DNA from: a virus
Lineage: Duplodnaviria; Caudoviricetes
Direction: 5' to 3' (one strand)
IMG/VR virus record: IMGVR_UViG_3300043469_000246
Location: 1-61,056 of that record
Length of the DNA stretch: 61,056 nt
A program made the translations under genes and the position numbers. Positions 16,279-16,517 of the stretch are shown piece after piece. Within the stretch, counting starts at the first letter, position 1. Each line of letters opens with the position of its first letter. Below the pieces are notes generated by a model, which was not told where the DNA came from, did not search any database, and saw only the letters and a program-made list of their open reading frames with translations.

Positions 16279-16479
16279 ATGATCTATTTTGCTCTTAACA
16301 ATGATGGACTTTTGTATGACCTAGGGGATCATGGGGATTGGGAGTGTGCTGAAGATACTGCCAACAACATGAAATTAGATCCTCTTTGGGTATTTGATGA
16401 AACAGTTGCTAAATCATGGGTTGAATTTATCAATGATCGCATTAGCGAAAATCAAGACAAACTGACGAGACTTGAATAG
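16279..16479 (+). CDS. early hypothetical protein
   Basis: GAGG SD; its last codons overlap the hammerhead. Confidence 0.65.
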   Translation: MIYFALNNDGLLYDLGDHGDWECAEDTANNMKLDPLWVFDETVAKSWVEFINDRISENQDKLTRLE

Positions 16480-16517
16480 TCGAAACCGAATCGCCTGTAT
16501 GGGGTTCGGTCTTTGTC
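16456..16517 (+). ncRNA. hammerhead ribozyme (type I), predicted cleavage after C16511
   Basis: stem I GACAAA/UUUGUC, core CUGACGA, stem II GAC/GUC, GAAA, stem III ACCGAAUC/GGUUCGGU, GUC cleavage triplet. Confidence 0.88.

Follow-up and report, generated by a model that had tools for sequence, protein, structure and literature searches.

A type I hammerhead ahead of a ribosome-binding leader in a small-gene operon of a phage, and its alternation with a two-hairpin RNA

Small genes and RNA elements at the locus

The window (the whole viral record analysed here, 61,056 b, estimated to be 96% complete) carries a plus-strand block of about twelve small ORFs that extends from ~15047 to 18257-18290. 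A complete type I hammerhead, identified by reading the letters and with a structural descriptor, lies between two small phage genes of this block (16456-16517, plus strand). The elements of the block that matter here are the following (core nucleotides in hammerhead numbering):

15047-15075, plus: putative sigma-70-type promoter (TTGCAA, 17 nt, CAGAAT), below the scanner cut-off
15077-15105, plus: hairpin with which the primary transcript is predicted to begin; the leader comes next
15345-15425, plus: two-hairpin RNA with leader, in a slot of the hammerhead type
16279-16479, plus: 66-aa ORF, ending in D K L T R L E and stop; its last eight codons including the stop form the 5' half of the hammerhead
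16456-16461, plus: 5' strand of stem I (GACAAA), paired with UUUGUC, covarying in relatives, and doubling as codons D-K of the 66-aa ORF
16462-16468, plus: catalytic core C3-A9 (CUGACGA, with C as N7)
16469-16481, plus: stem II (GACU/AGUC, 4 bp) with loop UGAAU, including the TAG stop of the 66-aa ORF
16482-16484, plus: core G12 A13 A14 (GAA)
16485-16510, plus: stem III hairpin (from A15.1-U16.1: 8 bp, a bulged G, 2 bp, loop UGUAU; 10 bp in total)
16511, plus: C17, with the predicted scissile bond C16511/U16512
16512-16517, plus: 3' strand of stem I (UUUGUC), where the downstream RNA is predicted to start
16519-16530, plus: leader AACUGCUAGGAG, Shine-Dalgarno region of the next cistron, with exact copies elsewhere
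16539-16616, plus: 25-aa strongly hydrophobic ORF MWDWILIVCLMYVAYVVASAVVIFN, the first ORF past the predicted cut, with its ATG 27 nt after the cut
16627-16884, plus: 85-aa ORF, the second gene of the segment behind the hammerhead
16875-16951, plus: second two-hairpin RNA with leader; relatives carry a hammerhead at the same junction
18257-18290, plus: hairpin resembling an intrinsic terminator, closing the operon

The leader is found as an exact 12-mer (AACTGCTAGGAG) at 15107, 15414, 16519 and 16940 of the plus strand, each time 6-8 nt ahead of a start codon, and also at 27364 of the minus strand. The first of the four plus-strand copies is preceded by the weak sigma-70-like promoter and its hairpin, the second and the fourth by the two-hairpin RNA, and the third by the hammerhead. 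At one related locus (L061), TATAAT is present immediately 5' of the same hairpin, as seen by eye in unaligned sequence.

The overlap of the hammerhead with the last codons and the stop of the 66-aa gene, already pointed out in the initial annotation, is correct: the TAG at 16477-16479 consists of the last base of loop II and two bases of stem II. The 66-aa ORF is matched over residues 1-66 only in L002-L004, and more distant relatives match it only up to residue 55-61. In the window and in L003 the gene is situated between a gene ending in ENEDY and the hammerhead; in L029, L032 and L049 it is absent, and the hammerhead directly follows the stop codon after ENEDY. The 66-aa gene looks like a cassette that was inserted at the ribozyme border and took the first 24 bases of the ribozyme as its C-terminus and stop. 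Behind the hammerhead, small hydrophobic ORFs comparable to the 25-aa one can be found in some relatives as well.

As for the phage itself, 15500-17500 had no blastn match among 50,697 phage records. The idea of an N4-like phage (with a 3768-aa ORF as virion RNA polymerase and the hairpins as N4-type promoters) was rejected, as the Pfam domains AAA_34, Helicase_C_4 and LPD38 identify this ORF as a polyvalent protein. The only Rfam match at gathering level in the window is a full-length Betaproteobacteria-1 RNA (RF02932; 21610-21726, minus strand; 100 bits, gathering score 49.4), which may hint at a betaproteobacterial host. Two RNA runs, each with 0.07 of the sampled words and represented by contigs only, contain relatives (85% likeness) rather than this phage; as contigs show no RNA ends, they do not weigh on either side of the cleavage question. 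In a contig of run X2, position 16274 is joined to 16458 via five other letters, and a long stem III insert follows; L047 and L050 have the same junction, which lacks the 66-aa gene.

Anatomy and conservation of the hammerhead

The core contains C3, U4, G5, A6, N7, G8 and A9 as well as G12, A13 and A14, and H17 is not G. Stem I is open, stems II and III are closed by loops, and the pairs next to the core are standard (A16461-U16512, G16469-C16481, A16485-U16510). The helices and these pairs agree with the rule by which Perreault et al. (2011, PMC3088659) accepted a hammerhead: three helices around the core, with standard pairs at 1.1-2.1, 10.1-11.1 and A15.1-U16.1. Coordinates and letters given in the initial annotation were all confirmed on rereading 16200-16800, and so were the positions in its proposal that the 3' product starts at U16512, 7 nt ahead of the 12-nt leader at 16519-16530.

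For the 62-nt RNA alone, the minimum free energy fold is the hammerhead secondary structure (-18.9 kcal/mol). In the flanking context, the nearest-neighbour model favours a register-shifted stem I (UGACGA/UUGUCA) by 2.2 kcal/mol (116 nt) or 3.8 kcal/mol (201 nt). Natural hammerheads usually need a contact between stem I and loop II at cellular Mg2+ concentrations; in the window hammerhead we saw no such tertiary contact, no pseudoknot and no loop-loop contact. A pseudoknot of loop II with the 5' flank was considered (UCAA at 16452-16455 matches UUGA at 16472-16475 over 4 bp) but, judged by eye, is not kept in relatives with other 5' flanks.

A structure of this kind is rarely produced by chance. 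The type I descriptor, which demanded stems of at least 4, 3 and 3 bp and all fixed core bases, matched once in the window (both strands searched) versus three times in 300 second-order Markov copies of the window. Without stems, the core pattern is frequently matched (12 times in the window versus 21 expected).

Infernal with the Rfam hammerhead models, the check proposed in the initial annotation, was of little help: hammerhead models matched the site only below threshold, and at gathering thresholds no hammerhead was found in the window; none reached gathering score in nine related loci either (best RF02275, 28.9 bits versus a gathering score of 52). Note that the gathering score is a curated cut-off, not a structural requirement. 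In E-value mode on 301 bases, the best model was RAGATH-1-hammerhead (RF03152; 27.7 bits, gathering score 56.3, E 0.009; E 0.13 when 4.5 kb were searched), and Hammerhead_1 (RF00163) reached 16.2 bits versus a gathering score of 34. Compared by Rfam consensus, the window element shares with RAGATH-1 the core string (CUGAnGAGACUUG...CGAAAC...GUC) and the open stem I. However, stem II is a single pair in the RAGATH-1 consensus, which also includes an upstream hairpin, whereas stem II of the window has 4 bp. The window element departs from RAGATH-1 in other respects too: what would be the upstream hairpin is coding sequence, five consensus loop positions are deleted, and the score lies below gathering.

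Much stronger evidence comes from relatives. Using the two flanking small proteins as queries, we fetched 67 related viral-contig loci (L002-L068), in which the descriptor detected 30 distinct hammerheads; each of them lies on the gene strand, and their stem sequences differ considerably. A covariance model built from a seed of 14 sequences, the window sequence included (R1), revealed 55 copies with E <= 7.3e-6 in the 424,911 b of the window and L002-L068, all of them on the plus (gene) strand. R1 also found forms that were not in the seed, i.e., eight distinct rows with an extra U after A9, copies whose stem III insert reached up to 83 nt, and two with U4C. A second model (R2), whose seed comprised nine relatives of other subgroups and lacked the window sequence, has the window site as its sole match in 61,056 b, both strands searched (42.4 bits, E 3.9e-11).

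In 33 distinct rows, standard pairs fill 100% of the cells of the 14 modelled pairs (29-45% with the partners slid), and compensatory changes were present in 10 of the 14 pairs tested, in stem II in three of four. The covariation score was 0.525, versus 0.123 for shuffled and at most 0.080 for slid alignments, and was reached by 0 of 500 shuffles; these values refer to an alignment that was fitted to the model and to seed sequences chosen with a pairing descriptor. Stem I has 6 bp in 30 of 30 distinct descriptor copies (mostly NNCAAA/UUUGNN), and stem III varies from 14 to 83 nt with covarying base pairs.

The unpaired positions behave in the opposite way. C3, G5, A6, G8, A9, G12, A13 and A14 are invariant in the relatives (G12, A13 and A14 in 32 of 32 strong distinct rows), N7 can be any base (U in 22, A in seven, C in three and G in one of the distinct rows), and H17 is C in 30 and A in two distinct relatives, never G. 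U4 is replaced by C in two of 33 distinct rows (two of 32 strong distinct relatives). This pattern, with a core invariant save for N7 and U4 and with H17 never G, is what catalysis predicts. The two U4C relatives (L009:3367-3418 and L014:3541-3594, with CCGAUGA) have all stems intact and may be inactive or slow variants. The long inserts in stem III (L033:2408-2501, L061:2315-2408, L059:1700-1793 and similar ones) contain a short motif (AUGAGUCCGCAAAUU or AUGAGACCGCAAA type) twice in tandem, and other inserts have a common AAUCACCUUAAUUGAGUGAACGAUGCAGUA block; these motifs could be regulatory or tertiary-contact modules.

The description of the site as a canonical hammerhead in the initial annotation is thus supported by the full core, the three covarying stems and the conservation pattern in relatives, and we have hardly any doubt that the element is a genuine hammerhead.

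Leader, start codon and the two-hairpin RNA

The hammerhead type is not restricted to these loci. A pattern scan of IMG/VR with the core and part of stem I fixed returned at least 115 stretches. Among the matches listed, 76 of the 77 distinct sequences fold as complete type I hammerheads, and 63 of these 76 have a 6-bp stem I. The leader CTGCTAGGAG follows 34 of the IMG/VR hammerheads listed, and others precede leaders without a Shine-Dalgarno sequence, so the ribozyme type extends beyond the present phage group. The hammerhead-plus-leader pattern had a single match in 185,579 species genomes (L184:1408-1429, minus strand), on a contig of 22.8 kb from a MAG that carries the label of a Nitrosotenuis archaeon. 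This is probably a phage contig binned with the archaeal MAG, and the match says nothing reliable about the host.

The position of the hammerhead relative to the neighbouring genes is well defined. An ATG-led ORF begins within 70 nt downstream in 152 of 163 distinct contexts, with a median of 26 nt from cut to ATG (10-40 nt in 148 of the 152; 27 nt in the window), and the stop of the upstream ORF falls within the hammerhead in 97 of the 158 distinct contexts that have an upstream ORF; hammerhead shares in such context and junction counts are inflated, as L069-L183 were fetched with a hammerhead pattern fixing part of stem I. What the initial annotation had noticed for the 66-aa gene is therefore the rule in the family. 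About 46 of these 97 internal stops end at the A6 offset, i.e., the U4-G5-A6 of the core itself is read as UGA. With stops inside the ribozyme, the same bases are needed for termination of translation and for folding of the ribozyme, and the two processes compete. The leader as such is also strictly oriented: 126 leader sites (76 distinct contexts) were counted in the relatives, all on the gene strand and none on the opposite one.

The element at the second and fourth leader copies of the window has a different architecture: a 12-bp hairpin is directly followed by a 7-bp hairpin (GAUUNYC...GNNAAUC) that ends just 5' of the AACUGCUAGGAG leader. A third covariance model (R3) found 63 copies (30 distinct) in the window (two copies) and L002-L068, without exception on the gene strand. 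Their modelled pairs are formed in 95.6% of the cells (33-44% when slid), with compensatory changes in nine of 19 pairs. An alternative fold is a single long extended hairpin (UGAUA with UAUCA). Rfam searches in E-value mode (4.5 kb plus 91 b) gave chance-level matches only and no ribozyme family for the two-hairpin RNA; its assignment to a known ribozyme was dropped, as there is no Rfam counterpart. The element may be cut by a nuclease, protect the RNA by its structure, act as a put-like antiterminator or represent a new ribozyme.

The initial annotation had placed the hammerhead in the same slot as the hairpins and had suggested interchangeable devices for mRNA processing. The junction before the gene encoding MGLDM... 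(16958 in the window) bears out the shared slot and supports exchangeability: among its 25 distinct contexts, 11 have a hammerhead and 14 a two-hairpin RNA, the hammerhead share being inflated because many loci were fetched with a hammerhead pattern. In some of these contexts the end of the upstream gene is the same too. Note that classification by regular expressions undercounts the two-hairpin RNA, many copies of which sit in the class 'other'. The alternation of hammerhead and two-hairpin RNA at one orthologous junction is real.

Predicted cleavage of the transcript and relation to known hammerheads

Computation establishes that a conserved hammerhead of canonical form is present on the sense strand, at a fixed distance 5' of a ribosome-binding leader. 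We consider it likely that it is functional in the operon, i.e., that it cleaves itself, splits the polycistronic mRNA of the phage and defines where the next message starts; the division of the transcript is deduced from the context and from the work of Perreault et al. (2011). The operon would be transcribed from the host-type promoter near 15047, probably to the terminator at 18257-18290. After synthesis of the 62 nt, the RNA would fold into its three helices and cut itself between C16511 and U16512 by internal transesterification, as expected from hammerhead chemistry. The upstream product would carry the genes from 15432 to 16479 and end with the hairpins of stems II and III and a 2',3'-cyclic phosphate. 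The downstream product would start with a 5'-OH at UUUGUCAAACUGCUAGGAG and have a short, unstructured 27-nt 5' UTR, which includes the standard ribosome-binding leader serving the 25-aa and the 85-aa gene. As the window holds a single hammerhead copy, one cut is predicted, and quick release of the 3' product from the A/U-rich stem I of 6 bp would make the cut irreversible. Such a division would uncouple the stability and the translation-start context of the neighbouring segments without any host nuclease. A caution comes from the overlap with the 66-aa ORF: ribosomes terminating at 16477-16479 would unfold stems I and II and thereby compete with folding of the ribozyme. The two-hairpin RNAs at other leader copies would probably do an equivalent job by another route, as their sharing of the slot suggests.

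An alternative is that hammerhead and leader are kept mainly as a conserved recombination junction for swaps of gene cassettes, with cleavage being secondary or absent. The same hammerhead and leader indeed border different genes in different relatives, and the 66-aa gene comes and goes at this border (present in the window and L003; absent in L029, L032 and L049, and also in the RNA-library contig of a relative). Recombination homology leaves unexplained, however, the compensatory changes in all three stems, the core that is invariant save for N7 and the strict strand bias, and the stems are too divergent among copies to act as such homology; we regard this explanation as unlikely. The element could also be a conserved RNA of hammerhead shape that does not cleave and serves as a protein-binding site, an exonuclease barrier or a translation insulator by structure alone. 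There is no evident tertiary contact, a competing fold is predicted in context, and the two-hairpin RNA in the same slot is devoid of any known catalytic motif, all of which would fit. But why should the unpaired catalytic bases then be invariant in 32 distinct strong copies, with H17 never G, while paired positions drift freely? Moreover, for type I hammerheads of RNA viruses without the usual loop-loop contacts, 5' ends matching the predicted cut have been reported in vivo (PMC13725137), and a non-cleaving RNA appears quite improbable to us.

Action in trans on several sites, or formation of circular RNAs together with other copies, would be another possibility, as relatives have up to three hammerhead copies per locus (a count obtained with a loose descriptor, five of whose 48 rows are spurious alternatives). 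RNA ends with 5'-OH and cyclic phosphate are ligatable in principle. Nevertheless, all three helices close in cis, and trans targets were rejected, as the substrate-arm motif GTCTTTGTC with at most one mismatch occurs 16 times versus 14.7 expected, with no occurrence at another leader. The single copy in the window leaves no segment between two cuts, and according to Perreault et al. (PMC3088659) spliced or circular products were not detected; both variants of this proposal are very improbable. A chance match or a decayed relic without function, finally, could be suspected from the Rfam scores below gathering and from the RAGATH-1 match, which is non-significant if scaled to the whole window. 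With three descriptor matches in 300 simulated windows, 55 copies found by R1, the covariation and the window site as sole match of R2, this explanation is already contradicted by the comparison with relatives and can be considered extremely improbable.

Self-cleavage of the transcript, which we prefer, would agree well with what has been reported for similar ribozymes. Bacterial and phage DNA is already known to contain type I hammerheads whose helix III is long; they have been found clustered around single genes, and a part in mRNA processing has been hypothesized for them (PMC3088659, PMC6765202, PMC13725137). Perreault et al. (2011, PMC3088659) reported that prophage hammerheads clustered around genes were cleaved during in vitro transcription, and proposed that they process long phage transcripts. 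The window hammerhead has the same core and three-helix junction, the open stem I and the long stem III of the bacterial, prophage and phage type I hammerheads (PMC3088659; Rfam clan CL00010). Like the set of Perreault et al. (as far as it is described in PMC3088659), it is intergenic and on the sense strand of a phage gene block, with several copies per block in relatives and with the same proposed role in cutting transcripts; unlike that set, it scores below the Rfam gathering scores and has a short open stem I, an ATG at ~26 nt and often the upstream stop inside the ribozyme.

Two further groups of viral hammerheads resemble it in position. In the haloviruses HF1 and HF2, an early polycistronic unit contains a hammerhead (HHphage) 13 nt ahead of a start codon, and the mapped 5' end is within 3 nt of the cleavage site; unlike the canonical window core, theirs is described as a variant that needs high salt or Mg2+, in an archaeal virus (PMC3088659). 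The hammerheads in the UTRs of chrysoviruses and fusariviruses are likewise of type I, with a longer helix III and without the typical loop-loop contact, and cut 7 nt ahead of the ORF start, the predicted end being supported by RACE (NAR 2026, PMC13725137). However, these are eukaryotic RNA viruses in which the ribozyme is linked to cap-independent translation initiation (PMC13725137), whereas here a DNA phage with a Shine-Dalgarno leader is concerned.

Functional analogies can be drawn as well. An analogy for the hammerhead and the two-hairpin RNA may be seen in coliphage T7, with the difference that T7 uses a host enzyme, whereas here the RNA would cut itself. In T7, RNase III sites are located between the early genes, and intercistronic cuts in the early polycistronic mRNA leave hairpins at the 3' ends. 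In synthetic insulators of the RiboJ type, a self-cleaving ribozyme directly 5' of a standard RBS strips the upstream context; the window hammerhead would be a natural counterpart of these engineered devices.

What is added to the known type is a subfamily below the curated Rfam thresholds, its close association with a standard leader and with upstream stops, and the natural alternation with an undescribed two-hairpin RNA. In the literature searched we found no description of a leader-linked hammerhead subfamily or of the two-hairpin RNA, and supplements such as Dataset S1 of Perreault et al. (2011) may list such sequences. We tentatively put forward, as a possibility that goes further than our main conclusion, that hammerhead, two-hairpin RNA and promoter-proximal hairpin are interchangeable front ends of one cassette, composed of an element that forms or protects an RNA end, the AACUGCUAGGAG leader and a gene. 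The phages might then swap a self-cutting ribozyme for an uncatalogued two-hairpin RNA (a site for a host nuclease or a new self-cleaving motif) with the same end result.

The role of bacterial and phage hammerheads is still regarded as open in the review PMC6765202. Since the subfamily lies below curated Rfam thresholds, annotation pipelines probably undercount such ribozymes. For the study of that role the phage group described here is an unusually clean setting: a fixed distance separates the cut from the standard ribosome-binding leader that follows, the core of the ribozyme often includes the upstream stop, and natural variants exist in which the hammerhead is swapped for the two-hairpin RNA at the same gene junction. 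Comparison of these natural variants, or exchange of the elements, could show whether the ribozyme controls mRNA stability, translation context or both. If the cassette idea is true, the swap between ribozyme and two-hairpin RNA would be the first natural genetic handle on the purpose of phage hammerheads.
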